Notes: a model not told the origin generated them from the letters alone. Positions 4,753 through 55,867 are shown, numbered from the stretch's first letter. The stretch is DNA of 55,867 nt from Candidatus Omnitrophota bacterium (GCA_043797665.1 JAZDPL010000060.1:1-55867), one strand, 5' to 3'. Numbers and translations: made by a program.

Positions 4753-4810
4753 GTAGGGGTTTGATTTATCAAACCCGACCACTTTCGGGCTCAATAAATT
4801 GAGCCCCTAC
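4753..4810 (+). repeat. REP-like double-hairpin element, divergent variant (R1), preceded by an inverted tail-module fragment ctaatacaaacg
   Basis: gtaggggtttgatttatcaaacccgacc actttc gggctcaataaattgagcccctac. The second hairpin is replaced but the structure is kept. The element overlaps the stop codon of the nitroreductase gene. Confidence 0.6.
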
Positions 4811-5394
4811 CTTTCAAGGGAAACGGTGTTGTGGTGAAGAATTTCTTTCAGGCTGCGTTTGGGTACGTGAAGGTTTCCTTTTTCGTCCAACCAGTATTTG
4901 ACCGAGCCGGTAAATTCTTCGGCAAAACTTTCCTGGTCCGGATAGCCCAGGGCTAAAACCGAGTCAACGGCATATTTGTCCGGTATCTTTAAGATTTCGG
5001 CAAGTTCCTTCCGGTAGACCGAACCCAACCAGCAGATTGCCACCCCTTCTTCTAACGCGGTTAAAATCATATTTTCAATCGCGGCGGACGCATCAACCGT
5101 ACCGTACGGAGCATCCTTCTCCTGTTTGAGAAGAACAATAACGTAAGCGGTTGGTCTCTTCCCTTCCGGCGGATCTCCGGCAGGCGCGATGTAACCGGCC
5201 CACTTCAGGGTGGTAAATACTTCTGCCACCAGAGCCGGTTCATCAACCACCAGGTATTCACACGGCTGTAAGTTTGCCGCGGAAGGAGCCAGCCTGGCTG
5301 CATTGACCATCTTTTCCATGACCGCATAAGGAACCGGTTTGGGTTGAAACCGCCGAATCGTGCGCCGTTTCAGAATCGTTTCATAGACCGTCAT
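4807..5394 (-). CDS. nitroreductase-family flavoprotein
   Basis: RRFQPKPVP...APSAANLQP and the overall ~195 aa length are typical of the NfsB/NADH-oxidase-type nitroreductase fold. Confidence 0.8.
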   Translation of the reverse strand: MTVYETILKRRTIRRFQPKPVPYAVMEKMVNAARLAPSAANLQPCEYLVVDEPALVAEVFTTLKWAGYIAPAGDPPEGKRPTAYVIVLLKQEKDAPYGTVDASAAIENMILTALEEGVAICWLGSVYRKELAEILKIPDKYAVDSVLALGYPDQESFAEEFTGSVKYWLDEKGNLHVPKRSLKEILHHNTVSLER

Positions 5395-5406
5395 CGCTAA
5401 CCTCCT

Positions 5407-6381
5407 TTAAAACGCAACATCAACCATGTCGGATTTGGTGATGACCTGGATGATAAATTTTACCATCTCAAAGTACCCGTGCGCAAAGTTCTGCCGGGGA
5501 AAGAAACCATCTAACAGACCCGCCAGGTTGAAGAAGATAAAGAGGATACCGAAGAAGAGCGCGGAGTAACCTCTCCAGCGGAGATTGCCCAATAGTTCCT
5601 TTTCACTCCGGGTGGCAAGGATAAACGGACGGTGGGTTGAAGGTTTGGCAACGATTAAGGTTTCCAAAGGATGGCTGCTGGCTTCGGTAAATAATTTTTC
5701 CTTTACCTTTTCTTCGGTCTCCGCTACCGCTTTATCCCACTCCTGAAAGTCTAATTTACCATCTTTGTTCTCATCGTAGGCGGCTGTCTTCTCCGGACTG
5801 CCCCGGAGGACCGCTAACTGGTCACCAACCTCTTCCTGCAAATCAGACAGAGAGGTCCGTTTCTTTACCTCACCCATTATGTAAAGAAACATCCGGGGGT
5901 AGATTGCCCGTTCCAAATAACGGGTGGTACCCTCTTCAATCTTAACGAAACCGGAATCGAACTTAGTATAGTAAGTCTCACAGGGTAAATCCAACTCTGC
6001 GTCGGCTGGGTCAACCAGAACTTTGTTTCCCTTTTCATCCTTAAGGTAAAACGGGACAAAAAGAAACCCGGAGTCAATGGTATGCCAGGAAGTAGTCCGG
6101 CCGCGCCTGGTATAGGTAACCCGCAGTTCCTGACATTTATACTTAGTCAGACAACACTTTTGTCCGGTCGCCGGACTGATAACGGGGTCTCGTAACTCAA
6201 CGAAACCGTTGATTTCCGCTAAACCAAGTGCCAGCGAACGAATCCGGGAAGTAGGTGTCGCGGTAATCCAGACTACCTGGGGTAAGAGTTTAAAAAAACT
6301 GCGGAAGAAGAGGTAAAAACCGAAGAGGAGAAAGAGGGTAAGGACGACAAGTGTGGGCGATTCTCCTGCCACCATACACAA
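5407..6381 (-). CDS. membrane protein with an EF-hand-like Ca-binding loop, function unknown
   Basis: Hydrophobic N-terminal and C-terminal segments. DENKDGKLDFQE fits the DxNxDGxLxxxE EF-hand loop. Confidence 0.45.
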   Translation of the reverse strand: MCMVAGESPTLVVLTLFLLFGFYLFFRSFFKLLPQVVWITATPTSRIRSLALGLAEINGFVELRDPVISPATGQKCCLTKYKCQELRVTYTRRGRTTSWHTIDSGFLFVPFYLKDEKGNKVLVDPADAELDLPCETYYTKFDSGFVKIEEGTTRYLERAIYPRMFLYIMGEVKKRTSLSDLQEEVGDQLAVLRGSPEKTAAYDENKDGKLDFQEWDKAVAETEEKVKEKLFTEASSHPLETLIVAKPSTHRPFILATRSEKELLGNLRWRGYSALFFGILFIFFNLAGLLDGFFPRQNFAHGYFEMVKFIIQVITKSDMVDVAF

Positions 6382-6407
6382 TTTTGTGGGGGTTCAAACG
6401 TCAAAAA

Positions 6408-9402: not shown

Positions 9403-9403
9403 T

Positions 9404-14776: not shown

Positions 14777-14791
14777 ACAAACCTCCTTGTT

Positions 14792-14854
14792 GTCATTCCC
14801 GCATGCCTTTAGCGGGAATCCACTGGATTCCTGTTTAATACCCACAGGAATGAC
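14792..14854 (+). repeat. repeat family 2, copy A (multi-hairpin element GTCATTCC...GGAATGAC)
   Basis: gtcattcccgcatgcctttagcgggaatc...ggattcctgtttaatacccacaggaatgac shows 3 nested inverted repeats. It lies in the divergent promoter region immediately upstream of the SD of the TIM-barrel gene. Confidence 0.6.
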
Positions 14855-14936
14855 ATTATTAAATGATACAATATACTACTTTTCGTTTTTCGGGTCAAGT
14901 GTGCGTTGCGCAGAGATGCTTATTCTATGGTAAAAT

Positions 14937-15590: not shown

Positions 15591-15622
15591 TACAAGTAAT
15601 AAATGAATTTACATCAATACTT

Positions 15623-15672
15623 GTAGGGGCTTGATTTATCAAGCCCGCGGGTCGGATAAATCCGACCCCTAC
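15623..15672 (+). repeat. REP-like double-hairpin element R2 (consensus GTAGGGGCTTGATTTATCAAGCCCGCGGGTCGGATAAATCCGACCCCTAC)
   Basis: Read directly. It sits between convergent gene ends. Confidence 0.8.
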
Positions 15673-18371: not shown

Positions 18372-18421
18372 GTAGGGGCTTGATTTATCAAGCCCGCGGG
18401 TCGGATGAATCCGACCCCTAC
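18372..18421 (+). repeat. REP-like element R3 (gatgaatc variant), followed by atcaaattatttat
   Basis: Read directly. Confidence 0.8.
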
Positions 18422-18449
18422 ATCAAATTATTTATAAGAAAAGGAATTG

Positions 18450-19415
18450 TTAAAGAAAGATGGAGTAAGCAAGGAAATAAACAGAACCGGGACCTTTATA
18501 ACCGGGCAGGATTTCGTACTCCTGATCGGTAAGGTTTCTAAACCCAAGAGTAATCAGGTGGTTGGGGCGACACCGGTAACTTATTGCACATCCGGGTAGA
18601 CACTGTTCCGGACTGTCTTCACCCGGATTTCCGTAATCCGCACCGCTTTCGTATTCAACAAAGAGGTCGAGAGTAACCTTAGGATTTATGGAACCAATCA
18701 GGCTTATCTTGCCGGTCCAGTCAGGCCAGAGCGCAGAGGTGTTTTCATCCTCGTCGACGCTGAGCAGGTGATAGGTAATAGAACCCGAAGGATGCAGACG
18801 CCGATAAGGAAAAAGAGTGGCGGCAAAAGTAAATTCGGTTTGTCCGGTGCCCGAAAGGTTATCCGGTAAATATAGTCCGCCTTCTCTTCGGCCGGCCGGC
18901 AAATCCCAGATGAAGCCGGTAGAAAGAGAAAAGTCCAGAAGACAGGATGGAACCGTTTTTTTAAAACCAAGTGAAACCGCTGCCTCCCTGACCGCCTCAG
19001 GAAATGGCTCAATCCCTTTTTGACTACTGACAAAACCCAAATAAAATTTATCGGTCTGCCAGAAAAAAGAAAAACCTAAACTTTCCCGGGTTCCACCCCA
19101 CAGATTTAAGTTAAAAAAAGATAAGGAAGGAACAGATTTTTCCGGAAGCAGTCTGTCCTGAAACGAAGGGAGGAGCGGCGGTGCTTCCTGCGGAAAGGAA
19201 AATACCGGAGCCGGTGTCTTATCCTCACCGATGATAATTCGTTCCGGCAGGCGTAAATCCTCCCCGGCAAAAAGAAGAGGAACGGAGAAAAAAAACAACA
19301 ACCAAACTAATACAAACGCAATAATTACGCTGTCATTCCCAAATGCTTTAAGCGGGAATCTATGAGAATATGGATTCCTGTTTACTATCCACAGGAATAC
19401 GGGTCCCCTTGTCAT
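18450..19415 (-). CDS. hypothetical secreted/membrane protein, possibly outer-membrane
   Basis: ORF of 321 aa with a hydrophobic segment near the N-terminus and a C-terminus ending YSIFL. The first ~30 codons are the translation of repeat family 2 copy B, so the true start is uncertain. Confidence 0.4.
   Translation of the reverse strand: MTRGPVFLWIVNRNPYSHRFPLKAFGNDSVIIAFVLVWLLFFFSVPLLFAGEDLRLPERIIIGEDKTPAPVFSFPQEAPPLLPSFQDRLLPEKSVPSLSFFNLNLWGGTRESLGFSFFWQTDKFYLGFVSSQKGIEPFPEAVREAAVSLGFKKTVPSCLLDFSLSTGFIWDLPAGRREGGLYLPDNLSGTGQTEFTFAATLFPYRRLHPSGSITYHLLSVDEDENTSALWPDWTGKISLIGSINPKVTLDLFVEYESGADYGNPGEDSPEQCLPGCAISYRCRPNHLITLGFRNLTDQEYEILPGYKGPGSVYFLAYSIFL
19332..19400 (+). repeat. repeat family 2, copy B; immediately flanked at 19302-19330 by an inverted copy of the REP tail-module (taatacaaacgcaataatt)
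   Basis: gtcattcccaaatgctttaagcgggaatc...ggattcctgtttactatccacaggaata. About 85% identical to copy A, with the hairpins conserved. Confidence 0.6.
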
Positions 19416-19456: not shown

Positions 19457-21268
19457 CTATTTGCCTTTCTTTTTAATCTGCGCCAAAGAATCCTTAATCT
19501 CTTTGCTCAAAGGTGAATCGCCCGGGAGGTTAATCAACGCTTCCAGATAGACCGGTACTGCCTCCTGGCTCCGGTCCAATCTCTGAAGACAAACACCCAG
19601 CCCATAGAGAATCTCACCTTTTCTATCCGGAATTTTTTCCTGAATCTGCCGGTAAATTGGAATCGCCTGAGCGTATTCCCCTTTCGCCAGAAGTAAATCC
19701 GCTTTATTCTTAAGGAGACTGTCCTTCAAGTCCTCCCGCGATTTAAGAGCAAGCCCGGCATCAAACGCAGACAGACTCTCTTCCGGTCTATTCTGTTGCA
19801 GGTAAGCCAGACCGGAAAGCAGGTAAGCCTCGGCCCGGATATCTTCGTCAATGTTTGGAGAGCCGGTGAGCCTTTTGAGGTACGGAATAGCCTCGGACGA
19901 ACGATTTTCTTCCAGGAAAAACCGCGCCAAAAACAAGACCATTGGCGCCTGGTCCGAGATAATACTACGATGAGAAAGAAACCCCTCCCAAACCGCTGAC
20001 GCGGCCTTCTTATCACCCCGGGCGATAAAAGTAAGTCCCAGGCCGTAACAAGCCTGCCCGGTCATTTCGTTTGCCGGATAGTTATGGACAAAATTTTCAA
20101 AAACCCTCTTCGCCTCATCGTAATCCCTAAGATTATATAACGAAAAAGCCTCCTGCAAAAGAGCATTGGGAACCAGAGAACTCCGGGGGAACTTCTTCTG
20201 GAATTCCCGGTAAAAAGATAACGCCTTCTCATAATCACCGGAAAGGAAGGTGGTACCGGCCAGTTCGTAAAGAACCTTCTCCTGGAACTCTTCGGCCCCG
20301 GGAATAGAGCGCGCCTTCTGTAAATATTCGGCTGACTTCACGTAGTCCTGTTCTTTCTGAGCCAGTACTCCCAACTGAAAGTCAGCGGTCATCTTGATTT
20401 CAGCATCGGTGGACTTCTCCGCCGCTGCCCGGTAATAAAGAGCAGACTGCCCATAGTCCTTCAGGGAAAAAAAGATGTCGCCTAAACGGAAAGATGCTAA
20501 AGCGGAAATCCCCGCATCAGGGCTTTTGGTAAGATCCAGAAAACAGGACCTTGCCAGAGGTAAATTTCCTTCGTGCCAGTAAGCGGTTGCCTGATAATAC
20601 CTGACTTTTGCCAAAGAAGGCTCGGCGGGAAAAGCGTCCATAACAATCCCGGCGATAGTATGAACCCGGACGAAATCTTTTTCTTTCAGCGCTTCCGCAA
20701 CGGCACGGGTAGCCGCGTTAATTAAAAACTTCCGGCCTTCCGGAAAGTCTTTCTGTTCCGGGTACTTCCCTTCCCATTCCCGGAGGGTAGTGAGGGCTTC
20801 AAAAAATTTGCCTTGATTTGCCTGGCTGGCTAAAAGTCCCTGGTACGCGGGTACGGCCATCTCCTTTTCTAAATTACCGGCGGTGATTGCGGTACGAAAG
20901 TCTATTTCCGCCTGGCTGAATGCAGAAGAAGACAGGTTTGTCTCACCCCGGAGATAGTAGGCCTGGGTCAAATAAGTACTTTCGGGATAGTTTTCAATCA
21001 GGAAAGTGAAACTCTTCCGGGCTTCCGGAAGCCGGCTCAATTTCCGGAGGTTCAAACCTTCCAGGAGTAATGCGTAAGACCGAAGTGAACTCTGGGGATA
21101 GTCCCGGTTAAACTGAACGAGGTAATTTAAAGAGATTTCGTAAAACTCATTTTCGTAAGATACTTTCGCTAATTGCAAACATTCCTTTTCGGTGTACCCA
21201 AAAACCGTCTTCCCCGAAAAAGTTAAAAAGGTTATCAGTCCAAAAACGAATAAACCTTTTTTTACCAT
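19457..21268 (-). CDS. secreted TPR-repeat protein
   Basis: Many TPR-like 34-aa units throughout. The start is set at MVKKGLFVFGL (signal-peptide-like), because the longer ORF reads through the REP element. Confidence 0.7.
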   Translation of the reverse strand: MVKKGLFVFGLITFLTFSGKTVFGYTEKECLQLAKVSYENEFYEISLNYLVQFNRDYPQSSLRSYALLLEGLNLRKLSRLPEARKSFTFLIENYPESTYLTQAYYLRGETNLSSSAFSQAEIDFRTAITAGNLEKEMAVPAYQGLLASQANQGKFFEALTTLREWEGKYPEQKDFPEGRKFLINAATRAVAEALKEKDFVRVHTIAGIVMDAFPAEPSLAKVRYYQATAYWHEGNLPLARSCFLDLTKSPDAGISALASFRLGDIFFSLKDYGQSALYYRAAAEKSTDAEIKMTADFQLGVLAQKEQDYVKSAEYLQKARSIPGAEEFQEKVLYELAGTTFLSGDYEKALSFYREFQKKFPRSSLVPNALLQEAFSLYNLRDYDEAKRVFENFVHNYPANEMTGQACYGLGLTFIARGDKKAASAVWEGFLSHRSIISDQAPMVLFLARFFLEENRSSEAIPYLKRLTGSPNIDEDIRAEAYLLSGLAYLQQNRPEESLSAFDAGLALKSREDLKDSLLKNKADLLLAKGEYAQAIPIYRQIQEKIPDRKGEILYGLGVCLQRLDRSQEAVPVYLEALINLPGDSPLSKEIKDSLAQIKKKGK

Positions 21269-21272
21269 AATC

Positions 21273-21322
21273 GTAGGGGCTTGATTTATCAAGCCCGCGG
21301 GTCGGATAAATCCGACCCCTAC
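21273..21322 (+). repeat. REP-like element R4, followed by atcaaattatttat
   Basis: Read directly. Confidence 0.8.
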
Positions 21323-21348
21323 ATCAAATTATTTATGTCGCTGGCATT

Positions 21349-21637: not shown

Positions 21638-21693
21638 CTTTCCTGTTTATTATTTACTACTACAGAAACTACCAACCATTGTTCTCTTCAGAT
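21638..21693 (+). repeat. repeat family 3, copy 1 (shared 5'-leader element upstream of cspA)
   Basis: tttcctgtttattatttactactacagaaactaccaaccattgttctcttcagata. Coordinates ±2, from hand indexing. Confidence 0.55.
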
Positions 21694-24190: not shown

Positions 24191-24242
24191 TTTGTAATAA
24201 TTAAGTTTTACCCGCTTCCGTAAAAAACCACAGGCTATAACT

Positions 24243-24294
24243 TTCCTGTTTATTATTTACTACTACAGAAACCTAACCATTTTCTCTTCAGATA
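24243..24294 (+). repeat. repeat family 3, copy 2 (same leader element upstream of the amidase gene)
   Basis: tttcctgtttattatttactactacagaaacctaaccattttctcttcagata. About 90% identical to copy 1. Confidence 0.55.
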
Positions 24295-24402: not shown

Positions 24403-25839
24403 ATGAAAACAAAAATACTTTTCGTGGCGGCAGAAGCGGTGCCCTTTTTCAAGACCGGAGGTTTAGCGGATGTAATCGGCTCCCTGCCGTTGGTCCTGGC
24501 AGATTCAGGTGCCGAAATTAAGGTCTTCCTGCCATTTTACCGCAGATTGGCTAATTTTGAAAATGATTGCCGGACGGTTCTAACCGGTGAAATCGGATTT
24601 GCCGGTAAAAACTGGAAGTTTCAGGTACTTTCGTTCCAAAAAGGACCGACTGAATTCCTCTTCTGTGATGTACCGGAACTGTTTGACCGGGAATCCCTCT
24701 ATGGTCCTTCCTGCGTAGACTATCCGGACAATCCCCTGCGGTTCGGTTTCTTTTCTTACGCCGCGCTCCATTCCCTGTCCGGACTTAAATTTCAGCCGGA
24801 TATCATCCACTGCCACGACTGGCATGCCGCCCTTTTACCCGTTTATCTCAAAGAAAACTTTAAGGCGGAACCTTTTTATCAGAAGATTAAAACCATCTTT
24901 ACCATTCATAATTTAGGCTATCAGGGCGTCTTCCCAAAAGAAAGATGGCCCATGCTTTCTCTGCCGGAGAGACTTTTCAACCCCGAAGGCCTGGAATTTT
25001 ACGGTAAGATCAATTTACTCAAGGCCGGGCTCATCTGGTCAGACAGAATTACTACCGTCAGCCCCACCTACAGCCGGGAAATTAGAAGTAAAGAGTTTGG
25101 CCAGGGTCTGGAAGGCATATTACAAAAACGCGCTTCAGACCTCTCCGGTATCCTGAACGGCATTGACTATCAATCCTGGAATCCGGAAACCGACCCGCTT
25201 ATCGCGGAAAACTATACGACGGGAAAACCAACGGGAAAAACTAAAAACAAAGAGATACTCTCCAGGCAATTTTCGTTCCTTTCTCCGGAAAAACCCCTTT
25301 TGGGTGTGGTAAGCCGGCTGACCCCCGCCAAAGGTTTTGACCTCGTTATAAAATCTCTCCCGGAAATCTTCCGGGAAGGTTTTAACCTGCTCATTTTAGG
25401 CAGCGGCTTGCCCGAGTACGAAACCCTCTTTACCGAAGCCAAATCAAAGTTTAAGGGGTCATTCGGGTTCCAGTCCGGCTATAACGAAAATCTGGCACAC
25501 GCCATTTACGCCGGCGCTGACCTCTTCCTGATGCCCTCTCTCTTTGAACCCTGCGGCCTGGGACAGATGATAGCTTTGCGGTACGGCACCGTTCCGGTTG
25601 TCCGCCGGACAGGCGGTCTGGCTGATTCAGTCTTCGGGTTTGACGGTGAAAAAGGTAACGGCTTCCTCTTTACCGAACCGTCGGACACCGCCCTGGTAAA
25701 AACGCTTCAGAAAGTCAGGGCGGTTTTCCAGAACAAGAACGCCTGGCATAAGATTACCGCCAATGCTTTTGCTTCCGACTGCTCCTGGTCCGGTTCCGCC
25801 CGGCAGTATCTCAAGTTGTATGGGGTTGCTCAACAATAA
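24403..25839 (+). CDS. glgA: glycogen/starch synthase (ADP-glucose type, GT5)
   Basis: KTGGLADV motif and a GT-B C-terminal domain. The ORF opens with a TTG at 24391, and the first ATG is at 24403. Confidence 0.9.
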   Translation: MKTKILFVAAEAVPFFKTGGLADVIGSLPLVLADSGAEIKVFLPFYRRLANFENDCRTVLTGEIGFAGKNWKFQVLSFQKGPTEFLFCDVPELFDRESLYGPSCVDYPDNPLRFGFFSYAALHSLSGLKFQPDIIHCHDWHAALLPVYLKENFKAEPFYQKIKTIFTIHNLGYQGVFPKERWPMLSLPERLFNPEGLEFYGKINLLKAGLIWSDRITTVSPTYSREIRSKEFGQGLEGILQKRASDLSGILNGIDYQSWNPETDPLIAENYTTGKPTGKTKNKEILSRQFSFLSPEKPLLGVVSRLTPAKGFDLVIKSLPEIFREGFNLLILGSGLPEYETLFTEAKSKFKGSFGFQSGYNENLAHAIYAGADLFLMPSLFEPCGLGQMIALRYGTVPVVRRTGGLADSVFGFDGEKGNGFLFTEPSDTALVKTLQKVRAVFQNKNAWHKITANAFASDCSWSGSARQYLKLYGVAQQ

Positions 25840-29436: not shown

Positions 29437-29456
29437 CCAAAAGGAAACCCTTTCCT

Positions 29457-30077: not shown

Positions 30078-30121
30078 CAAAAACACCACATAGCGGGTTT
30101 AATATAGATAACAGACAAGAA

Positions 30122-35471: not shown

Positions 35472-36335
35472 ATGATGAAAAAGAGTAGAAATAATTGGTT
35501 GTTGGGTCTGATTATCTATTCTTCATTTGTAGGCTTGCATAATGTTTTTGCTGGTGAATTTAAACCGGATAAAAATACTTTATTCCTGGTTCATTTTAAC
35601 AAAGGGCTTAACGCCGATTATGCCCGGGGTTCTAAAGAAACTGCGATGACTGCGTCTCTTACAGAAAAAAATGGTGGATGTTGGGAAGAAGGATTGCTGG
35701 TAAAAGACGGGCTTACGATAACTCCGGAGGAAATGGAAGTATTGTATCGGCCACTGGGCTATAAGGCGAAAAACAGTTTTAATAGCCAAAGAGGCACAAT
35801 GGAACTCTGGGTAAAAGTTCTCAACTTCCCGAAGGATTTATCGAAAGAGAATGAGTTAGGTTTGATATCTATCTCTGACTGGAGAACGCTTCCTGGTCCG
35901 GAATGGGCTTTGGAAGGATGTACCGCTTATGGATACCTCGCCATCATATACAGCAACAAGGTTAAAAAAATCACCTTTACGGAATTTAGAAAAGAGGTAA
36001 AGTATGACCTTACCAATATCGGCACATTAGATGAGGACCGATTTCGTATTGATGCTGACGTAAAAAAATGGAAAACAGGCGAGTGGCACCATATTGCAGC
36101 CGCCTGGGATGCGGAGAACGACAGGCGAACATTATTTGTTGATGGAAAGAGAGTGGGCGAGGCAAAATTTAAGTACCCGGATAGGTTACTGGTGCCCAAC
36201 GCGACCGATATTGTAGTGGGTGGAATCTTTAAAAAGTCTCTCACCCCTTTCTCCTGCATGATAGATGAGGTAAGAATCTCTGATGTAGTCAGGTATACCG
36301 GCAATTTTATTCCAGAAAAAAGGGAGGGAAAGTGA
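35472..36335 (+). CDS. secreted LamG/concanavalin-A-like jellyroll protein, paralog 1
   Basis: Signal peptide and LamG_3-like motifs (WHHIAAAWD, LFVDGK, MIDEVRISDVVRY). 4-nt overlap with the downstream 937-aa gene. Confidence 0.7.
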   Translation: MMKKSRNNWLLGLIIYSSFVGLHNVFAGEFKPDKNTLFLVHFNKGLNADYARGSKETAMTASLTEKNGGCWEEGLLVKDGLTITPEEMEVLYRPLGYKAKNSFNSQRGTMELWVKVLNFPKDLSKENELGLISISDWRTLPGPEWALEGCTAYGYLAIIYSNKVKKITFTEFRKEVKYDLTNIGTLDEDRFRIDADVKKWKTGEWHHIAAAWDAENDRRTLFVDGKRVGEAKFKYPDRLLVPNATDIVVGGIFKKSLTPFSCMIDEVRISDVVRYTGNFIPEKREGK

Positions 36336-39145
36336 AGAAGAACAGATGGGTTGGGATGATGTTTCTTCTAATATTTTTAACCAGTATCGCCTCGGTTTAC
36401 GGTGGAGAAATAACCTTGAAGACCGAGGGTCTAATGGTCAAAGTAGACAGCACTGGTAAACTCAAGGTTACGGATTTAATAACGAATACTGAGGCAAAAA
36501 AGTACATAGATAGTTTTACCATTCTCAACGGCAAAAATAAGGATGAAGAACTGAATCCTGGCGCACCGGAAAAGACAGAACAGAGTGAGAACGGGTTCAA
36601 AAGTGTTTATCGCAACGTGGGTGGTTTTTTGAATATAACCCAGAGCTTTGAGAGAGCGGATAAGTTTATAAAGAGCACGATAGAAATTGAAAATACCGGT
36701 TCCGAACAGGCCTGGTTAAAAGTACGGTTCAATATGCCGGTGGTATCATCCACGGATAATTTAGTTTACTGGAACGGAAACAACCTCTACGAGGAAATCT
36801 TTGACGATTTAAAGAGAGAGGAACTGTTCAATACCTTTCCTATGGCCTGCGCCTACAGCAAAAAGAGCGGCGTGGCGGTTGGGATAGAAGCCCATCAGAT
36901 ATTTTCGCATATCGAGAACGGACTTCTTTACAATACCAACCAACCCGTTATCTACTACGGAGTAAAATTGGTAGTTGACCCCAAAAAAGTAAACAAGGTG
37001 GAATTTATAACCTATACCTTTAACCCTGATTATGGATATCTGAATGCGGTGGACAGTTACCAGAAGATATTTCCTGATATGTTTGGAGCGAAGACAGGGG
37101 TTGACAAAAGGGTTTATACCACCGCAATGACCACCTCGTCTCTCTATTATTACGAGGTACAGGGCCGTCCGGATTCGCTTTATATATCCCCGGAATTTCC
37201 CAGAAGGCATTTTGGAGGCTGGGTCTGGGGTTATGCTCCGGTCCAGGTCATTGGAGACTGGTACGGAACCAAGGAGATCACCGAAAATCCGGACCTGCAT
37301 TCCATGAAAGATGTGGAGTACGGCAGTTACGAAACATTCCAGAAGAATCGCAGGAAAGGTATTGAAGCCGCCAGTGTCAGGAATGCGGCCTATATGTTTT
37401 ATGTTATCAACTGGTGTGATAAAAAACTGGCGGATAAGTTTTATCCGGATTGTATCGTGACCGATAAGAATACGACCAATCTTTGCAATGGTTGGGTTTT
37501 AATGAACGATGCCGATTACCGGATGTGGTGCGGGGGGAATAAGTTCAGCCAGGACATGCAGAGAGATATTAAAAAGATAGCGGAGGAGTTGCCGATATCA
37601 GGTTTTTCGCTTGACTGTGTTTCCGGACCGGCTTTATGCCGGCAGACCGGTGTGGAAACGATGGAGGGCAAGGCTTACGACAGTGAAGGGGTGTACGCCA
37701 GAGAGGGGTCAGGGATGGCAAAGATGATGGATTATATCCACGGTCTGAAACGGGACGATAAGACAATGGGAATATCATCAAACCTGGCCGGTAATGCGCT
37801 TCAGTATTATGTGGCCATGAGAACCGACAATGCCCTGACAGACTGGGCATTTTCCGAGGCGCTGAACAATATTACGGCGGAGGAAATCCAGCGGTATCTG
37901 CTTGGAACACGACCACAGAACTGGTGTATTCTGATAGATAGTGAAAAATACGGCAGTACCTTGCCCTGGCAGGAATACAGCCCTGAGAAGATAAGGCAGA
38001 TATATAACAATATCCGGGATAACCTGATTCTATTTTCCTACCGGTTTGCCTATTTCCCACATCAAGCCTTAAGTTGGGGCAATGTGAAGATAATGAAGGC
38101 GATGCCTGTCTTTCAGAAATTAATTGCTGCCGGTTACCAGGTAATCCCGGCGGTAAAACTGAACGAAGACTTATGGCGGGCCCGGTATGGAAATGATTTG
38201 AACTCTTATCTCTTTATCGGCAACCAGAAGTTTACTGCCCAACAGATAACAGCAACCATAGACAACCGGTATCTTGGTAAAAGAGTATATCTCTTTTCGA
38301 AGTACGACGGGACTCCGGTTGATAACCTCATTGAAAATAACAAGACGGTCATCAACTATTCTTTAAAACCCAAGGAGCCGTTGATTCTTAAAGCTGTTCT
38401 GGGTATAAAAGATTGCGGAGGGGCTAAAGTTACCGGAAAAGCAGAAGAAGCCGGCGATATTAAGAGCGGAAGGGTAAAGATAAGTTTAAAGAGTACCAAA
38501 GGAATAAAGACGGAAATTTCCGTCAGGTTGCCCGAAGAAAATTCTGCAGTTGAGGTGAAGGTTAACGACCAGGCAATCGGTTTTAAATCCGGGGAAAGCA
38601 GGGTGGTCTTCGCCGCAACCCTGGGAACCGACAATAAAATAGAAGTTGGTTGGAAATCCAACCTCTTTCAAGTCTCTGAAGAACAGGTTCTGGCATACCA
38701 GTTTATTACTCCGGAGGGAAAATCAAGATGTACCATCGTAGTTGACGATGCGGCCGATGAAAATGATAATAATACTGCCTTCAGACTTCAGGAGTACTTT
38801 CGTTACTACTACGAAAAGGTCAAAAAGGACCCTGGCGTCAAAATACCGATTAAGAAAAAGTCTGAGGCTGGGGAATTAAAAAATGCGGTTTTAATCGGGA
38901 TAGACGCAAAATCAGGATATGGTATCAACATTTCAGCCGAGAATAATAACCTGGTCATCACCGCACCGGACAGTCTTACCCGTTTCGAAATGGTAAACAG
39001 ACTGATGATGGTCCTGGATAAGAAATATGTCTATTACGGAGTTATCGGGGACCCGGCAGATGCTAATGTCTATACCCGGGATCCGGCAACCCAGAAGATG
39101 CGGGAAAAAGCTGGTTTAGGGGTGGGAACAGTCTGGGAAGAATAA
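36332..39145 (+). CDS. large secreted protein (937 aa), function unknown, candidate glycan-active enzyme; paralog A
   Basis: Signal peptide. No motif that I can assign to a family. The central region has TIM-barrel-like strand motifs (ISGFSLDCVSG). Paralog of 40086-42911. Confidence 0.7.
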   Translation: MKKNRWVGMMFLLIFLTSIASVYGGEITLKTEGLMVKVDSTGKLKVTDLITNTEAKKYIDSFTILNGKNKDEELNPGAPEKTEQSENGFKSVYRNVGGFLNITQSFERADKFIKSTIEIENTGSEQAWLKVRFNMPVVSSTDNLVYWNGNNLYEEIFDDLKREELFNTFPMACAYSKKSGVAVGIEAHQIFSHIENGLLYNTNQPVIYYGVKLVVDPKKVNKVEFITYTFNPDYGYLNAVDSYQKIFPDMFGAKTGVDKRVYTTAMTTSSLYYYEVQGRPDSLYISPEFPRRHFGGWVWGYAPVQVIGDWYGTKEITENPDLHSMKDVEYGSYETFQKNRRKGIEAASVRNAAYMFYVINWCDKKLADKFYPDCIVTDKNTTNLCNGWVLMNDADYRMWCGGNKFSQDMQRDIKKIAEELPISGFSLDCVSGPALCRQTGVETMEGKAYDSEGVYAREGSGMAKMMDYIHGLKRDDKTMGISSNLAGNALQYYVAMRTDNALTDWAFSEALNNITAEEIQRYLLGTRPQNWCILIDSEKYGSTLPWQEYSPEKIRQIYNNIRDNLILFSYRFAYFPHQALSWGNVKIMKAMPVFQKLIAAGYQVIPAVKLNEDLWRARYGNDLNSYLFIGNQKFTAQQITATIDNRYLGKRVYLFSKYDGTPVDNLIENNKTVINYSLKPKEPLILKAVLGIKDCGGAKVTGKAEEAGDIKSGRVKISLKSTKGIKTEISVRLPEENSAVEVKVNDQAIGFKSGESRVVFAATLGTDNKIEVGWKSNLFQVSEEQVLAYQFITPEGKSRCTIVVDDAADENDNNTAFRLQEYFRYYYEKVKKDPGVKIPIKKKSEAGELKNAVLIGIDAKSGYGINISAENNNLVITAPDSLTRFEMVNRLMMVLDKKYVYYGVIGDPADANVYTRDPATQKMREKAGLGVGTVWEE

Positions 39146-39170
39146 TTCATTCAAAAACAGGAGAGGTTTT

Positions 39171-40058
39171 ATGGACAAGAGATGGTTTTTCTGGATGTTC
39201 GTGGCTGGAGTTTTGTTGGTAAATGGTCAGGTTAACGCCGAGTTCAAGCCGGACAAGAACACGACTTTACTGTTTCATTTTAATAAGGGGTTTACGGCTG
39301 ATTACGCCACGGGTGAAAGAAGTGGCACCGGGACAGCTGCGCTGACCCAAAACAACGGCGGCTACTGGGGCGAAGCGCTGATAGCCAAGAAAGGGTTATG
39401 CGTCAATTCCGACGGTCTGGAGGTTATGTACAAATGGTTGGAATATAAGGCACAGAACAATTATGATAGTAAAAAAGGGACGATTGAGTTGTGGGTAAAA
39501 CTTTTGAAAACCCCTTCAGAAATCGTGAGCGAAAAAGAGACAGAGAAATTTGCCCAAATGGTTCTGATATCCATAATCAAGTGGGACCAGCATGGGCAGC
39601 AATCTAACTGGGCAACACTGATGATTGATTACAACTTTTACGAAACACCGCAGTGGAAGGTTACTGTGTATGAAAGCAAAAAGGAACAGGATGTCTTTGT
39701 AGATGGCCAAGTCTGGAGTGAACTGTATCGTAACCGATTCCACTTAGATTACGACATCGTAGGCTGGAATAAAGAGGTATGGCACCATATTGCGTTTACC
39801 TGGGATGCGGAACAGAATACCAGAGCCTTATTTGTTGACGGTAAAAAGATTGGCACCGGGAATTCGAAGTATGAGGACAAATTCCAGGAACTGGTTCCAG
39901 AAGCAGGACGTCTCCTTGTTGGTGGGTATTTCAGTGACAATACGATGAATCTTCCCTGCGTGATTGATGAGGTACGGATTTCCAACATTGTCAGATATAC
40001 CGAGGATTTTGTACCGCCATCCCAAAAAGTTGGTGGGGCTGAGGATAAAGAGCAGTAG
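39171..40058 (+). CDS. secreted LamG/ConA-like jellyroll protein, paralog 2
   Basis: WHHIAFTWD, LFVDGK, VIDEVRISNIVRY. About 40% identical to paralog 1 and ~88% to paralog 3. Confidence 0.7.
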   Translation: MDKRWFFWMFVAGVLLVNGQVNAEFKPDKNTTLLFHFNKGFTADYATGERSGTGTAALTQNNGGYWGEALIAKKGLCVNSDGLEVMYKWLEYKAQNNYDSKKGTIELWVKLLKTPSEIVSEKETEKFAQMVLISIIKWDQHGQQSNWATLMIDYNFYETPQWKVTVYESKKEQDVFVDGQVWSELYRNRFHLDYDIVGWNKEVWHHIAFTWDAEQNTRALFVDGKKIGTGNSKYEDKFQELVPEAGRLLVGGYFSDNTMNLPCVIDEVRISNIVRYTEDFVPPSQKVGGAEDKEQ

Positions 40059-40085: not shown

Positions 40086-42911
40086 ATGAAAAAGTTCTGG
40101 GTATTCGGGGCGGTAATATTATGGTTTTTGGCTGGTTTTTGTGATGCGGCAGTCTCGGCCGGCGGAGAAGTTACACTAAAAACGAGTGGGTTAACTATCA
40201 AGGTTAACAGTGAGGGAAAGATTAAGGTGAATGATCTGATTGACGGGACTGAATCAAAAGAGTATATAAACAGTTTTACCATTCTCAACGGCAAAAATAA
40301 GGATGAAGAGCTGAATCCTGGCGCACCGGAAAAGATAGAACAAAGTGAGAACGGTTTCAAAAGTGTTTATCACAACGTGGGTGGCTTTTTAAATATAACG
40401 CAAAGTTTTGAAGCCGCGGGTAATTTTATCAAGAGCACGATAGAGGTTGAAAATACCGGTTCCGAACAGGCATGGTTAAAAGTACGGTTCAATATGCCGG
40501 TGGTATCATCCACGAATAATTTAGTTTACTGGAACGGAAATAACCTCTACGAGGAAATTTTTGACGATTTAAAGAGAGAGGAGCTGTTCAATACCTTTCC
40601 TATGGCCTGCGCCTACAGCAAAAAGAGCGGCGTGGCGGTTGGAATAAACGCCCACCAGATATTCTCATATATTGAGAACGGGCTTCTTCATAGTACCCCC
40701 TCCCCTGTTATCTACTACGGAGTAAAACTGGTGGTTGACCCCAAAAAAGTAAACAAGGTGGAATTTATAACCTATACCTTTAACCCCGACTATGGATATC
40801 TGAATGCGGTGGACAGTTACCAGGAGATATTTCCGGATATGTTTGGAGCGAAGACCGGGGTTGACAAAAGAGTTCATACCACCGCAAAAACCACCTCGTA
40901 TCTCTATTATTACGAGATATGGGAGCATCGTTTGGAATCGCTTTACCTATCCCCGGAATTCCCCAGAAGGCATTTGGGAGGCTGGGTCTGGGGATATGCT
41001 CCGGTCCAGGTCATTGGAGACTGGTACGGAACCAAGGAAATCACCGAAAATCCGGACCTGCATTCCATGAAAGATGTGGAATACGGCAGTTACGAAGCAT
41101 TTCAGAAGAACCGCCGGAGAGGTATTGAAGCGGCCAGAGTAAGAGATGCGGCTTATATGTTTTATGTTAGCAACTGGTGTGATAAAAAACTGGCTGATAA
41201 GCTTTATCCGGATTGTATCGTGACCGATAAGAATACGACCAATTTGCTTTATGGTTGGACCTTAGGAAATGATGCCGAACATCGAATGTGGGTTTGGGGA
41301 AACGCTTTGGGCCGGGATATGATGAGGGACATTAAAAAGATAGCGGAAGAGTTACCGGTATCCGGCTTTTCGCTTGACTGTGTTTCCGGGCCGGGGATAT
41401 GCCGGCAGACCGGCGTGGAGACGATGGAAGGCAGGGCTTACGACGGTGAAGGCGTGTACGCCAGGGAGGGGTCCGGGATGGCAAAGATGATGGATTATAT
41501 CCACGGACTGAAAAGGGACGGGAAGACGATGGGGATATCATCAAACCTGGCTGGTAATGCGATTCAATATTATGTGGCCATGAGAACAGACAATGCCCTG
41601 ACAGACGCGGCATTTTCCGAAGCACTGAACAATATTACGACGGAGGAAATCCAACGGTATTTACTCGGAACACGGCCCCAGAACTGGTGTATCCTCATAG
41701 ACAACGAAAAGTACGGCAGTACCCTACCCTGGCAGGATTACAGTCCTGAAAAGACAAGGCAGATATATAATAACATTCGGGATAACCTGATTCTATTTTC
41801 CTACCGGTTTGCTTATTTCCCGAATTACGCCTTAAGTTGGGGCAATGTGGCGATAATGAAGGCGATGCCTGTCTTTCAGAAATTAATTGCGGCCGGTTAC
41901 CAGGTAATCCCGGCGGTAAGGCTGAATGAAAACCTGTGGCGGGCTCGTTACGGAAAGGGACTAAACTCTTATCTCTTTATCGGTAACCAGAAGTTTACTG
42001 CCCAACAAGTAACGGCCACGATAGATAACCGGTATCTTGGCCCGGGAGTTTATCTCTTTTCGAAGTACGACGGGACTCCTATTAATAACATCATGGAAAA
42101 TAATAAAACGACTGTCAGTTATTCTTTAAAACCCAAGGAACCGTTGATTCTAAAAGCCGTTCTAAACATAAAAGATTGCGGAGGGGCTAAAGTTACCGGG
42201 AAAGCAGAAGAGACCGGCGATATTCAGAGCGGAAGAATAAAGATAAGTTTAAAAAGTACAAAAAGCATAAAGACGGAAATTTCCGTCAGGGTACCCGAAG
42301 AAAGTTCTGCAGTTGAGGTTAAGGTTAACAACCAGGCAATCGATTTTAAATCCGGGGAAGGTAAGGCAGCCTTCACCGCAACTCTGGGAACCGACAATAA
42401 AATAGAAGTTGGTTGGAAATCTAACCTCTTTCAGGTTTCTGAAGAACAGGTCCTGGCATACCAGTTTATTACTCCGGAGGGAAAATCAAGATGTATCATC
42501 GTAGTTGACGATGCGGCCGATGAAAATGATAATAATACTGCCTTCAGACTTCAGGAGTACTTTCGATACTATTACGAAAAGGTCAAAAAAGACCCTGGCG
42601 TCAAAATACCGATTAAGAAAAAGTCCGAGGCTGGGGAATTAAAGAATTCGGTTTTAATCGGGATAGACGCAAAATCAGGATACGGTATCAACATTTCAGC
42701 AGACAATAATAACTTAACCATCACCGCACCGGATAGTCTTACCCGTTTCGAAATGACAAACAGACTGATGATGGTCCTGGATGAGAAGTACCCCTATTAC
42801 GGAGTTATTGGAGACCCGGGGGCAAAAGATGGTAATAACTATACTCAGGATCCGGCTACTCAGAAGATGCGGGAAAAGGCTGGTTTAGGAGTGGGAACAA
42901 TCTGGGAATAA
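40086..42911 (+). CDS. large secreted protein (941 aa), paralog B of 36332-39145
   Basis: About 85-90% aa identity to paralog A, with a localised divergent patch. Signal peptide present. Confidence 0.7.
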   Translation: MKKFWVFGAVILWFLAGFCDAAVSAGGEVTLKTSGLTIKVNSEGKIKVNDLIDGTESKEYINSFTILNGKNKDEELNPGAPEKIEQSENGFKSVYHNVGGFLNITQSFEAAGNFIKSTIEVENTGSEQAWLKVRFNMPVVSSTNNLVYWNGNNLYEEIFDDLKREELFNTFPMACAYSKKSGVAVGINAHQIFSYIENGLLHSTPSPVIYYGVKLVVDPKKVNKVEFITYTFNPDYGYLNAVDSYQEIFPDMFGAKTGVDKRVHTTAKTTSYLYYYEIWEHRLESLYLSPEFPRRHLGGWVWGYAPVQVIGDWYGTKEITENPDLHSMKDVEYGSYEAFQKNRRRGIEAARVRDAAYMFYVSNWCDKKLADKLYPDCIVTDKNTTNLLYGWTLGNDAEHRMWVWGNALGRDMMRDIKKIAEELPVSGFSLDCVSGPGICRQTGVETMEGRAYDGEGVYAREGSGMAKMMDYIHGLKRDGKTMGISSNLAGNAIQYYVAMRTDNALTDAAFSEALNNITTEEIQRYLLGTRPQNWCILIDNEKYGSTLPWQDYSPEKTRQIYNNIRDNLILFSYRFAYFPNYALSWGNVAIMKAMPVFQKLIAAGYQVIPAVRLNENLWRARYGKGLNSYLFIGNQKFTAQQVTATIDNRYLGPGVYLFSKYDGTPINNIMENNKTTVSYSLKPKEPLILKAVLNIKDCGGAKVTGKAEETGDIQSGRIKISLKSTKSIKTEISVRVPEESSAVEVKVNNQAIDFKSGEGKAAFTATLGTDNKIEVGWKSNLFQVSEEQVLAYQFITPEGKSRCIIVVDDAADENDNNTAFRLQEYFRYYYEKVKKDPGVKIPIKKKSEAGELKNSVLIGIDAKSGYGINISADNNNLTITAPDSLTRFEMTNRLMMVLDEKYPYYGVIGDPGAKDGNNYTQDPATQKMREKAGLGVGTIWE

Positions 42912-42933
42912 TATTTTCGAATAGGGAGGGGAT

Positions 42934-43827
42934 ATGCGGAGAAGAATAGTTTTTTTAGGGTTGGTAGTTATGGGAATGTGGCTGACAAAGAGTATAGCCA
43001 GCGGCGGTGAGTTTAAACCAGACAAGAACACAACCTTTCTGGTTCACTTCAACGAAAAGTTTGAGGCAGACTACGCCACAGGTGAAAGGGGAGGCACCGG
43101 GACAGCTGCGCTGACCCAAAACAACGGCGGCTACTGGGGTGAAGCGCTGATAGCCAAAAAAGGGTTATGCGTCAATACCGACGGTCTGGAAATGATGTAC
43201 AGGTGGTTGGAATATAAAGCCCAGAACAACTATGATAGTAAGAAGGGGACGATTGAGTTGTGGGCAAAACTTTTGAAAAACCCTTCAGAAATCGTGAGCG
43301 AAAAAGAAACGGAGAAATTTTCCCAGATGGTTCTGGTAGCCATAAGCAAGGGGGACCAGCATGGCCAACACAGTAACTGGGCGATGCTGATGATTGATTA
43401 CAACTTTCACGAAATACCGCAGTGGAAGGTTACTATGCTTGAAAGCAAAAAGGAGCAGGATGTCTTTGTAGATGGCCAAGCCTGGAGTGAACTGTATCGT
43501 AACCGATTCCACTTAGATTACGACATCGCAGACTGGAATAAAGAGGTATGGCACCATATTGCGTTAACCTGGGATGCGGAACAAAATACCAGAGCCTTAT
43601 TTATTGACGGTAAAAAGGTGGCAACGGGAAGATCTAAATACGAAGACCGTTTCCAGGAACTGGTTCCAGAGGCAAAACGTTTATTTGTTGGTGGGTATTT
43701 CAGTGACAATTCGATGAACCTTCCTTGTGTGATAGATGAAGTGCGTATTTCCAACATTGTCAGATATACCGAGGACTTTGTACCGCCATCCCAAAAAGTT
43801 GATGGGGCTGAGGGTAAAGAACAGTAG
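42934..43827 (+). CDS. secreted LamG/ConA-like jellyroll protein, paralog 3
   Basis: Near-duplicate of 39171-40058. Confidence 0.7.
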   Translation: MRRRIVFLGLVVMGMWLTKSIASGGEFKPDKNTTFLVHFNEKFEADYATGERGGTGTAALTQNNGGYWGEALIAKKGLCVNTDGLEMMYRWLEYKAQNNYDSKKGTIELWAKLLKNPSEIVSEKETEKFSQMVLVAISKGDQHGQHSNWAMLMIDYNFHEIPQWKVTMLESKKEQDVFVDGQAWSELYRNRFHLDYDIADWNKEVWHHIALTWDAEQNTRALFIDGKKVATGRSKYEDRFQELVPEAKRLFVGGYFSDNSMNLPCVIDEVRISNIVRYTEDFVPPSQKVDGAEGKEQ

Positions 43828-53048: not shown

Positions 53049-53098
53049 GTAGAGGTTCAATTTATCGAACCCGCGGGTCGGATGAATCCGACCCCTAC
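53049..53098 (+). repeat. REP-like element R8 with compensatory base-pair changes in hairpin 1, followed by agttttgattgcaa
   Basis: gtagaggttcaatttatcgaacccgcgggtcggatgaatccgacccctac. C-G to T-A and T-A to C-G double substitutions keep the stem intact. Confidence 0.75.
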
Positions 53099-54580: not shown

Positions 54581-54630
54581 AGGGGTTGTCACCTCTGGCA
54601 AATAGTCAACTTTATTCTGTGACAACCCCT
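54581..54630. repeat. solo 50-bp miniature of the TIR element: 12-bp inverted repeat AGGGGTTGTCAC / GTGACAACCCCT around a core related to the 26067-26096 TIR
   Basis: cacctctggcaaatagtcaactttattctgtgacaacccct against cctctggcaaatagttaattttattgttgagcaacccct. Confidence 0.55.
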
Positions 54631-54769
54631 TATATTTTCGCATACCGGATTCTTGGTGTCAACGAAAGATTGAACCGGACATTTACTTATGGAGGGAATT
54701 TATGATAAGATAAACTACTGAGATATTAAAAGATGAATCCACGGGAACGCGTAAAAACGGAGGAATAAA

Positions 54770-55264
54770 ATGAGAAATGAAAAGGTGTGCGAATTGAGTC
54801 TTGAAAAATTTCAATTGTTTGGTTCGTTTGCGCGGATGATTAACCCTGACGGCGCAAAGCTGGGTGCCCCACCGATTGAATTTTACCGCGACATGCTCTC
54901 TCTGAAGATTGGTACCCCAACCGCTTCCTTTTCGGTCTGCCGGGTTGAAAAGAGACCGATGATGGTGGATGTGACGGAATTTCACAGTTGGTGCGGTGAA
55001 GGTATTCTTCCTCTGGACGGAGACATCCTCATCCACGTCGGTCCGGCTACGCCCAAAGGAGAAGTCCCGGTAGGAAAAATAAAGATATTCCGGGTTCCCA
55101 GAGGCACGATGGTGACTTTAAACCCGGGTGTCTGGCACCACGCTCCGTTTGCCTATAAATCTGCGGCGGTCAACGTCCTGATTGTCCTGCCGGAACGCAC
55201 CTACGCCAACGACTGTACCGTAGAAAAGATTCCCCCAATCAAGCAGATTCAGATTAAAACCTGA
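54770..55264 (+). CDS. ureidoglycolate lyase (AllA)-like cupin protein
   Basis: VWHHAPFA and NDCTVEKIP align, from memory, with E. coli AllA VWHHPLFA and NCDVESIPE. 164 aa. Confidence 0.6.
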   Translation: MRNEKVCELSLEKFQLFGSFARMINPDGAKLGAPPIEFYRDMLSLKIGTPTASFSVCRVEKRPMMVDVTEFHSWCGEGILPLDGDILIHVGPATPKGEVPVGKIKIFRVPRGTMVTLNPGVWHHAPFAYKSAAVNVLIVLPERTYANDCTVEKIPPIKQIQIKT

Positions 55265-55278
55265 TTAAAGGAGAAACG

Positions 55279-55734
55279 ATGCAGAACAGATGTTTAAATT
55301 TCGGACTGGTTTTATTAGTGGCGGTCAGCCTGACCGGCTGCGGAAGAGATAAACCGAAGACCGCAAACGAGTGGGTTGACAAGGGGTTCTATGCTTTTGG
55401 AAAGAAGAATTATAACGAGGCGGTCAAGTGTTATACCAGAGCAATCGAACTTAATCCCAACGACCCGTATACTCATTATCTCCGGGGCATGATGTACGAA
55501 GGAAAAGGCAACCTTGATAAGGTCTTTTACTCCTTTGCCATCAGCGATTACGAGCAGGCGATAAAGATTAAGCCGGACTTCACCCAGGCTTATTACAACC
55601 GGGGAATGGTATATTATTACCAGAAAAATTACGCCAAAGCCTGGGAGGATGTCCGCAAGGCACAGAGTTTAGGATACGAACCCATACCATCGTTCCTTGA
55701 CTACCTGCGCAAGGCTTCCGGACAGAGCAAGTAA
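55279..55734 (+). CDS. TPR-repeat lipoprotein
   Basis: Lipobox LTGC after a hydrophobic signal, followed by three TPR units (AIELNPND..., AIKIKPDF...). Confidence 0.7.
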   Translation: MQNRCLNFGLVLLVAVSLTGCGRDKPKTANEWVDKGFYAFGKKNYNEAVKCYTRAIELNPNDPYTHYLRGMMYEGKGNLDKVFYSFAISDYEQAIKIKPDFTQAYYNRGMVYYYQKNYAKAWEDVRKAQSLGYEPIPSFLDYLRKASGQSK

Positions 55735-55867
55735 ATTACCCCGTGCTTCCGCACGGGGCATTGGGACATTAAAAATGTTTGTATTCAACATTCAAGGTAG
55801 GGGCTTGATTTATCAAGCCCGCGGGTCGGATAAATCCGACCCCTACAATTTTGATTGCAAAACAGAT
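55735..55867 (+). repeat. second copy of the 133-bp composite repeat (hairpin + palindrome + REP R9 at 55797-55846 + tail); the window ends exactly at its last base
   Basis: Matches 29304-29436 with 1 mismatch. Confidence 0.85.

Follow-up and report, generated by a model that had tools for sequence, protein, structure and literature searches.

What are the nine double hairpins that recur, always in the same left-to-right order, between the genes of a 55,867-nucleotide stretch from Candidatus Omnitrophota bacterium (GCA_043797665.1 JAZDPL010000060.1:1-55867; hereafter the window, i.e., the whole stretch that was analysed), and what has placed them there? A sequence-only reading of this DNA had likened them to repetitive extragenic palindromic (REP) elements and to the bacterial interspersed mosaic elements (BIMEs) of E. 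coli. That view is borne out: the elements consist of GTAG-tagged units in inverted pairs, and an identical unit variant is catalogued beside the gene of a REP-associated tyrosine transposase (RAYT, also TnpAREP). With a probability that we put at roughly 0.8, the nine elements are GTAG-class REPs arranged as head-to-head (HH) heterodimers, which would serve as non-autonomous, single-stranded DNA hairpin substrates of a RAYT encoded elsewhere, probably of subclass 2.4, and would have been inserted strand-specifically. They belong to a known class of repeats, and are to be called REP/REPIN/BIME-type units (REPIN, REP doublet forming hairpins) or 'HH heterodimers'.

A 22-mer taken from the second hairpin matched the window eight times, always on the plus strand, and had no matches in shuffles. 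The census by regular expression gave 18 hairpin units, 17 of them intact and one, the left unit of copy R7, split by an insertion; a covariance model run with its filters off returned the identical 18 and nothing further, with no solitary or decayed unit anywhere in the window. These units form nine dimers in 55.9 kb (about one per 6 kb), each lying between called open reading frames (ORFs). Motif, regular-expression and covariance-model counts thus uphold the earlier description of nine intergenic copies in a single orientation, irrespective of the direction of the flanking genes. Element DNA amounts to about 1% of the window, and this fraction can be filed under REP/REPIN in annotation.

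The consensus 50-mer is GTAGGGGCTTGATTTATCAAGCCCGCGGGTCGGATAAATCCGACCCCTAC; the form first printed contained one G too many and for that reason found no match. Reverse-complemented together with its CTAC, the second hairpin reads GTAGGGGTCGGATTTATCCGACCC, and its build matches that of the first hairpin with its GTAG. The 50-mer is made up of two units of the same kind, inverted head-to-head and overlapping at GC. Each 24-nt unit has a 5' GTAG, an 8-bp stem (GGG-NNNN-A / T-NNNN-CCC) and a TTYA loop, and the GTAG stands directly at the stem foot in all 18 window units. The two units differ at the four variable stem positions, the left one being of the CTTG type (CTTG/CAAG) and the right one of the TCGG type (TCGG/CCGA); the consensus copy is therefore a heterodimer. 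In eight of the nine copies the TCGG unit is on the right and the linker measures 2 nt (GC), the exception to both being R1, which combines TTTG and CTCA units across a 10-nt gap. Since the element is an inverted dimer, only the placing of its two stem variants, left or right, gives it a 'strand' or orientation. The copies are as follows.

R1, 4753-4810, plus strand: divergent head-to-head dimer of a TTTG left unit (4753-4776) and a CTCA right unit (4787-4810), between a tRNA-Ser gene (minus) and a nitroreductase gene (minus).
R2, 15623-15672, plus strand: consensus dimer, with the CTTG unit on the plus and the TCGG unit on the minus strand, between the convergent genes of a HAD hydrolase (plus) and a DinG-like helicase (minus).
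R3, 18372-18421, plus strand: TCGG unit with a TTCA loop, between two minus-strand genes.
R4, 21273-21322, plus strand: consensus dimer, identical to R2 in sequence.
R5, 29366-29415, plus strand: right unit with one G>A on the plus strand, giving a G.T wobble on the minus strand.
R6, 30122-30171, plus strand: CTTG unit with a TTCA loop.
R7, 32507-32583, plus strand: CTTG unit whose loop holds a nested 27-nt hairpin (32520-32546).
R8, 53049-53098, plus strand: left unit TTCA/CGAA, in which two pairs are compensated and two are A.C; right unit TCGG, its loop TTCA.
R9, 55797-55846, plus strand: consensus dimer; the window ends 21 nt past it.

As single-stranded DNA, either strand of the element is predicted to fold into two separate 8-bp hairpins (-17.1 kcal/mol; z = -6.6 and -5.8 for the two strands). 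In this minimum free energy fold GTAG and CTAC are unpaired, which does away with the 7-bp outer inverted repeat that was thought to enclose both hairpins. Because the stems of the two units differ (CTTG vs TCGG), each folds alone and not as one long hairpin.

The alignment of 43 distinct sequences, representing 196 units from the window and 76 other loci, was obtained with a search pattern that left the four inner stem positions unconstrained. These four positions are complementary in nearly all 196 units, and each of the variable stem pairs takes three to four standard pair types. Among the 43 distinct units, 96.5% of the stem cells pair, vs 76.1% in shuffles (reached by 0 of 500), and 74 cells are changed on both sides, vs 22.7 in shuffles, such two-sided changes being seen in four pairs of the stem; when the partner is slid by one column, pairing is 50% or less. 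G1 is invariant in the same alignment, T2, A3 and G4 are each at least 90% conserved, and G.U-type pairs are present in some stems. The hairpin structure is under selection, as had been proposed from the compensatory changes of two variants, and that proposal was an understatement given how much stronger the covariation is.

Copy R8 had been described as keeping its first hairpin intact by paired changes. Two of its pairs are indeed compensated, while two A.C mismatches are not, and its left unit resembles one of the TTCG type that has undergone G>A twice. Together with the one in R5, the window contains three stem mismatches, all of them G>A on the plus strand, i.e., C>T on the minus strand, where a G.T wobble is left. 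The 27-nt insertion of R7 is a hairpin, as had been recognised, but not a one-off: it recurs at the identical loop position in two other genomes (loci L054 and L067), marking a subfamily.

The units show what defines GTAG-class REPs, i.e., GT[AG]G located 0-2 nt 5' of the hairpin foot, a fully paired stem (7-20 bp), a loop of 2-5 nt and complementary stem changes between subfamilies, in many dispersed, mostly intergenic copies. Additionally, the repeated unit consists of two inverted REPs, as in REPINs and BIMEs. Protein-binding linker motifs between the REPs, on which the strict E. coli definition of a BIME relies, do not occur; the linker here has only 2 nt, and the parallel once drawn with IHF-binding linker modules falls away.

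Relatives were sought by scanning the 26-mer GCGGGTCGGATRAATCCGACCCCTAC (TCGG unit plus CTAC) over the GTDB representatives, one genome per species. Exact copies were found at 76 or more loci from at least 31 metagenome-assembled genomes (MAGs), whose labels name more than ten phyla. By MAG label, the matches listed are mostly from Omnitrophota, with Atribacterota (five MAGs) and Elusimicrobia, and include 'Deltaproteobacteria' (three MAGs of the Desulfobacterota type, one of them a closed 3.4-Mb chromosome), Chloroflexota, Planctomycetota, Zixibacteria, Gemmatimonadota, Clostridia and one short Altiarchaeota contig of 2.2 kb. None of these loci comes from the genome of the window itself. The closest relatives of the window among them, CSMAG_1143 contigs and an Omnitrophota MAG, share 57-73% amino-acid identity with it. 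The GC content of 31 tabulated loci, with at least one from most MAGs, ranges from 29 to 60%, and partner unit, spacer length and flanks differ by lineage. Since each lineage has its own partner unit, spacer and flanks, the matches are not one organism's DNA mis-binned, phylum labels being taken as given. An assembly artefact was rejected for the window copies, since they vary among themselves, each is set in unique flanks, and at least 31 other MAGs contain the repeat as well.

Over 77 sources, 75 pairs are HH, 8 tail-to-tail and 3 head-to-tail, and a spacing of 2 nt is the most frequent. Among 92 copies, the flanks show no relation except for an A after CTAC in 67 of them, and no direct repeats or target-site duplications flank the nine copies of the window. 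Elsewhere, too, the copies are mostly intergenic. Gene contexts are unidirectional in 40 cases, convergent in 10 and divergent in 5, in line with what has been published for GTAG REPs (PMC3733652). In other lineages, the dimer forms part of longer conserved units that include a third hairpin. The IMG/VR viral contigs gave no exact match and the PLSDB plasmids no blastn match. At three loci (L046 6938-6955, L052 and L073), half-units such as AATAAATTGAGCCCCTAC or AATCAAGCCCCTAC directly follow a complete dimer; one unit might have been cut within its loop and then linked to another, which would be a trace of cleavage and rejoining. On an Omnitrophica GWA2_41_15 contig (L047 300-6900), BIME-like clusters of three to four units (TCGG, CGCC and CGCG types) with conserved linkers of about 27 nt sit where long ORFs are very few.

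The difference between the two units of a dimer makes its orientation readable. This orientation is unrelated to the direction of neighbouring genes (21 ++ vs 19 -- contexts), and neighbouring TCGG dimers are co-oriented in 15 of 17 pairs, 7 of which lie in the window. As a proxy for the direction of replication, we compared the coding-strand skew at third codon positions between genes of the two strands. In the window, minus-strand genes have a GC3 skew of +0.049 vs -0.047 for plus-strand genes (p = 0.054) and a TA3 skew of +0.171 vs +0.021 (p = 0.0002). Given these higher skews, the G/T-rich strand is the minus strand, on which the TCGG unit has its 5'-GTAG form. When 74 other loci were pooled, the strand with TCGG in the GTAG form exceeded its opposite by +0.026 in GC3 (p = 0.06 by permutation) and by +0.042 in TA3, the latter being reached in 0 of 5000 permutations. 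A second proxy, gene-strand bias, had a value of 0.50 and is thus uninformative. The usual rule takes the G/T-rich strand as the leading-strand sequence, i.e., the template of lagging-strand synthesis. Transposases of the IS200/IS605 family act at the lagging-strand template, and the three C>T changes on the minus, G/T-rich strand fit a picture of this kind.

Heterodimer orientation tracks third-position G/T excess, and this suggests a link with replication, which we consider a good lead and not a result. The evidence for this polarity is indirect, and several observations limit it: two of the 17 neighbouring pairs are opposite (L014 and L072), some of the co-oriented pairs are local duplications (L008, L047 and R5/R9), the pooled GC3 effect is only marginal, and the window includes neither origin nor terminus. 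Furthermore, the per-MAG sign is positive in 8 of 20 MAGs for GC3 and in 14 of 20 for TA3, and most of the pooled effect stems from three Omnitrophota MAGs that are well sampled. Should a closed genome bear out the association, genomic data would show directly that REP doublets enter one replication strand, as do IS200/IS605 elements.

In the mechanism that we propose, the units would be non-autonomous and recognised as single-stranded DNA hairpins. A RAYT, which is a Y1 HUH enzyme, encoded elsewhere in the genome and probably of the subclass 2.4 type, would cut and rejoin them and so spread them into intergenic DNA without target-site duplication. The uniform orientation in the window would come from strand-specific action on the lagging-strand template.

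The published catalogue of REPs near tnpAREP genes speaks for this assignment. For the subclass 2.4 tnpAREP gene CBL45870.1 (genome code GproA01), Table S1 of Quentin 2018 (PMC6006769) names GTAGGGGCGCGATTCATCGCGCCC as one of the nearby REPs. Like the units described here, it has a stem of 8 bp that begins with three G-C pairs, and a TTCA loop; three G-C pairs at the stem foot are given in that paper as a trait of subclass 2.4 REPs. Base for base, GTAGGGGCGCGATTCATCGCGCCC is identical to one of the 43 variants of our alignment. Judging from the accession, the GproA01 host is probably gamma proteobacterium HdN1. The entry differs from our dimers in being a single unit near a RAYT, and the CTTG and TCGG variants of the window do not appear in that table (PMC6006769). 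The same build of GTAG, 8-bp stem and TTYA loop is also found there in Bacteroidetes, Ignavibacterium and Pseudomonas.

Our own searches for the enzyme weigh on the other side. Based on phmmer searches with E. coli RayT against all ORFs, neither the window nor 75 of the 76 REP-bearing loci encodes a RAYT, and screens of the window and loci for HUH/Y motifs added none. The sole RAYT found (L046) has another REP, of the GTAGTCGGGCTCG type, on its flanks, as have its relatives, and 80 metagenomic RAYT loci are without any unit of this family. A RAYT/tnpA(REP) gene, which the sequence-only reading had proposed to look for elsewhere in the genome, was thus not found beside the family in the window or the fetched loci. 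Searches with the L046 clade returned RAYTs flanked by GTAGTCGGGCTCG-type or other REPs only, the matches of a RAYT profile search were dominated by enterobacterial RayT, and no translated copy of the unit was found inside RAYT proteins. Because no RAYT adjoins the family here, its link with such an enzyme rests on anatomy and on the one literature table entry. A genome may contain perhaps hundreds of REPs for one RAYT, so that the absence of the gene is expected in so small a sample.

In the fetched RAYT loci, the gene is bracketed by REPs of like build, with GT[AG]G, a stem of 7-9 bp and a TTCA or TTTA loop. The RAYT clade of L046 (5100-5900), L081-L084 and L165-L168 is bracketed by a different REP, GTAGTCGGGCTCGTCCCTGAGCCCGA. 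This REP is also inserted in frame within the RAYT gene, where it yields RAQGRARL and SGSGTSPTT peptides, a trait described for TnpAREP subclass 2.4.

An identical unit across many phyla is hard to reconcile with a purely vertical inheritance of REPIN-RAYT systems. As a tentative conjecture, with the odds against it, one REP-RAYT system may have moved among many phyla of uncultivated groundwater, sediment and lake microbes, so recently that the 26-mer is still the same in genomes of 29-60% GC, its heterodimers being placed with fixed polarity to the replication fork. The identical 26-mer also fits an ancient system in which a slowly evolving RAYT imposes a very strong sequence-specific constraint, and some phylum labels of MAG contigs may be wrong. 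If the conjecture is true, transfer of REP-RAYT systems between phyla would contradict the view of their solely vertical inheritance, and the fixed-polarity heterodimers would be a natural, strand-marked reporter of single-strand transposition.

Around the dimers, separable modules had been claimed to combine in a mosaic, and this claim holds in part. The modules are given below.

139-nt composite, 29298-29436, plus strand: GC hairpin (29308-29327), 38-nt spacer, R5 and the tail AATTTTGATTGCAA.
GC hairpin CCCCGTGCTGCCGCACGGGG, third copy, 29457-29476, plus strand: 41 nt downstream of R5.
14-nt tail ATCAAATTATTTAT, 18422-18435 after R3 and again 21323-21336 after R4.
Tail AGTTTTGATTGCAA, after R8.
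Full 27-nt tail, 30175-30201, after R6: its end is close to the SPFH gene (30216), immediately ahead of that gene's ribosome-binding site.

The GC hairpin and the TTTTGATTGCAA tail each occur three times in the window. The full 27-nt tail occurs there once, after R6, with a diverged copy after R7; its 12-mer core, searched with up to two mismatches, is not enriched (7 found vs 4.35 expected), and R3 and R4 share 14 nt of tail only. Tails similar to that of R6 follow dimers in two other Omnitrophota MAGs (L062 and L032). The tail core GCGTTTGTATTA is found upstream of tRNA-Ser as well, and upstream of a further gene, without any REP; it looks like a -10 region. The R3/R4 tail CATCAAATTATTTAT does not match WATCAANNNNTTR, the form that served to test for a linker motif of IHF or another host protein. 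The tails look like lineage-specific flanks or promoter regions, and the family is a mosaic in a loose sense, without a counterpart of the protein-binding linkers of E. coli BIMEs.

The 139-nt composite is duplicated, 29298-29436 and 55729-55867 being 99% identical, and its two copies hold R5 and R9, which are thus not independent of each other; its start lies 5 nt ahead of the stop codon in either of two genes that are unrelated. Repeats drive the contig breaks and small duplications of this DNA. A promoter-like, near-consensus sequence TTGACA-17-TACAAT (32474-32502) ends 4 nt upstream of R7, and the left flanks of R2 (15609-15622) and R4 (21259-21272) have a similar -10-like sequence 4 nt before the GTAG, so that some dimers may sit at the extreme 5' end of transcripts. 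A further small family of repeats, which has no relation to the GTAG units, is present at about 14780-14855 and 19330-19400 of the window and in L021, L069 and L074. It is built of a GTCATTCCCGC...GCGGGAATC hairpin followed by a ATTCCTGT...ACAGGAAT hairpin, and the latter resembles the nested hairpin of R7.

These surroundings bear on whether the hairpins are kept mainly as RNA elements, i.e., as 3' or 5' stem-loops that stabilise mRNA or stop transcription. Such roles have been published for REPs (PMC3733652). Most copies lie between unidirectional or convergent genes, some stems contain G.U-type pairs, R7 starts 4 nt past a strong promoter-like site, R2 and R4 have -10-like flanks, and the R5/R9 composite starts at the 3' ends of two unrelated genes, 5 nt ahead of their stop codons. 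We nevertheless regard a mainly RNA-level role as unlikely, since orientation is indifferent to the direction of the flanking genes (21 ++ vs 19 --), the hairpins have no T-run downstream, and an unpaired, conserved GTAG in an inverted dimer is a feature of a DNA substrate. Rfam 15 returned only two tRNAs at gathering score across the window, and nothing at E <= 1 in 29250-30260. An RNA role could, in any case, coexist with mobilisation by a RAYT and is therefore no true alternative as to origin.

The sequence-only reading had also raised the prospect of a polarity signal for the host's replication or segregation machinery, similar to KOPS or Chi. The single order of the nine copies, the agreement of 15 of 17 neighbouring pairs and the association of orientation with strand composition are what such a signal would lead one to expect. 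The polarity motifs that are known consist of short words, scattered through genes. The elements occur about once per 6 kb and only between genes, both strands of the inverted dimer fold alike, and opposite neighbours exist (L014 and L072). Insertion by a single-strand transposase would yield the same polarity without any signal function, which explains it more simply, and we consider a KOPS- or Chi-like role very improbable and not needed.

Miniature inverted-repeat elements moved by a DDE transposase, or integron attC-like sites, could share the inverted ends (GTAGGGG...CCCCTAC), the high copy number and the units of about 120 nt that longer conserved flanks form in some lineages (L031/L038/L072 and L009/L037/L057), but this is hardly credible, given that the window copies lack target-site duplications, the window encodes neither a transposase nor an integrase, what lies between the copies are housekeeping genes of either direction and not cassettes, the ends are GTAG/CTAC without RYYYAAC/GTTRRRY core sites, and the family was not found in the plasmid and viral collections (PLSDB and IMG/VR). 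A CRISPR reading was rejected on anatomy and context.

The genes of the window are those of an ordinary chromosome and include tig-clpP-lon, two tRNAs, a DinG-like helicase, glycogen metabolism, radical SAM enzymes and sugar kinases, together with a DUF1559/prepilin ORF typical of the PVC (Planctomycetes-Verrucomicrobia-Chlamydiae) group. A tandem duplication of 3.76 kb (36332-40058 and 40086-43827, 87-92% identity) contains, in each copy, an ORF of 937/941 aa without a Pfam match followed by a Laminin_G_3 protein of 295/297 aa; immediately upstream are a third LamG ORF (35472-36335) and the DUF1559/prepilin-type ORF (34752-35456). Two minus-strand genes are enclosed by an exact 32-nt direct repeat (21638-21669 and 24241-24272), the genes encoding a PD40 beta-propeller and an Amidase_3 protein. 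This stretch has the lowest GC content of the window (0.39 vs about 0.48) and is possibly an acquired cassette. Between a starch-synthase-like and a GH57 gene, a 31-nt inverted repeat (25822-25852 / 26066-26096) has arms that are 97% complementary and 213 nt apart, and a third copy, 81% similar, is located at 54589-54630, upstream of an FGGY kinase gene.

A literature search with the sequence string itself returned nothing relevant. The subterminal hairpins of IS200/IS605 elements resemble the units in having a 5' guide tetranucleotide next to a hairpin, single-stranded processing, no target-site duplication and an orientation bias with respect to the lagging-strand template. The elements described here differ in that no transposase gene lies between the hairpins, which are 2 nt apart, and in that both strands carry a potential substrate.

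E. coli BIMEs, which combine y, z1 and z2 REPs with L and S linkers (PMC3333891), share with our dimers the inverse heterodimer of two subtypes and the GTAG at the 5' foot, and TnpAREP has been proposed to act on single strands in that system, possibly on the lagging-strand template (PMC3333891). The family differs by its lack of a long protein-binding linker, by perfect 8-bp stems in place of imperfect palindromes of 30-40 nt, and by the absence of tandem arrays from this window. In Pseudomonas, the replicating unit of REPINs is likewise two inverted REPs, present as near-identical, dispersed, intergenic copies, and some REP arrays are oppositely oriented on the two sides of the chromosome (PMC3116915). 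Their spacers measure tens of nt and the doublet forms one long hairpin, whereas our units, 2 nt apart, each fold by themselves. Vertical inheritance has been described for REPIN-RAYT systems; in the present family, one unit is identical across many phyla.

The consensus GTAGGGG-N4-ATTYAT-N4-CCC is absent from the text and supplements examined of the study that described GTAG REPs (PMC3733652), and the Omnitrophota-like host of the window lies outside the sampling of that paper. The likeness to the REPs described in that study extends to a terminal GTAG, a stem of 6-13 bp, a short loop and complementary stem changes between subfamilies. There, too, units with unlike stems are paired head-to-head as 'HH heterodimers' located between unidirectional and convergent genes, and the GTAG-17 dimers of Opitutus terrae share their spacing of 1-2 bp (PMC3733652) with the CTTG and TCGG units of the window.

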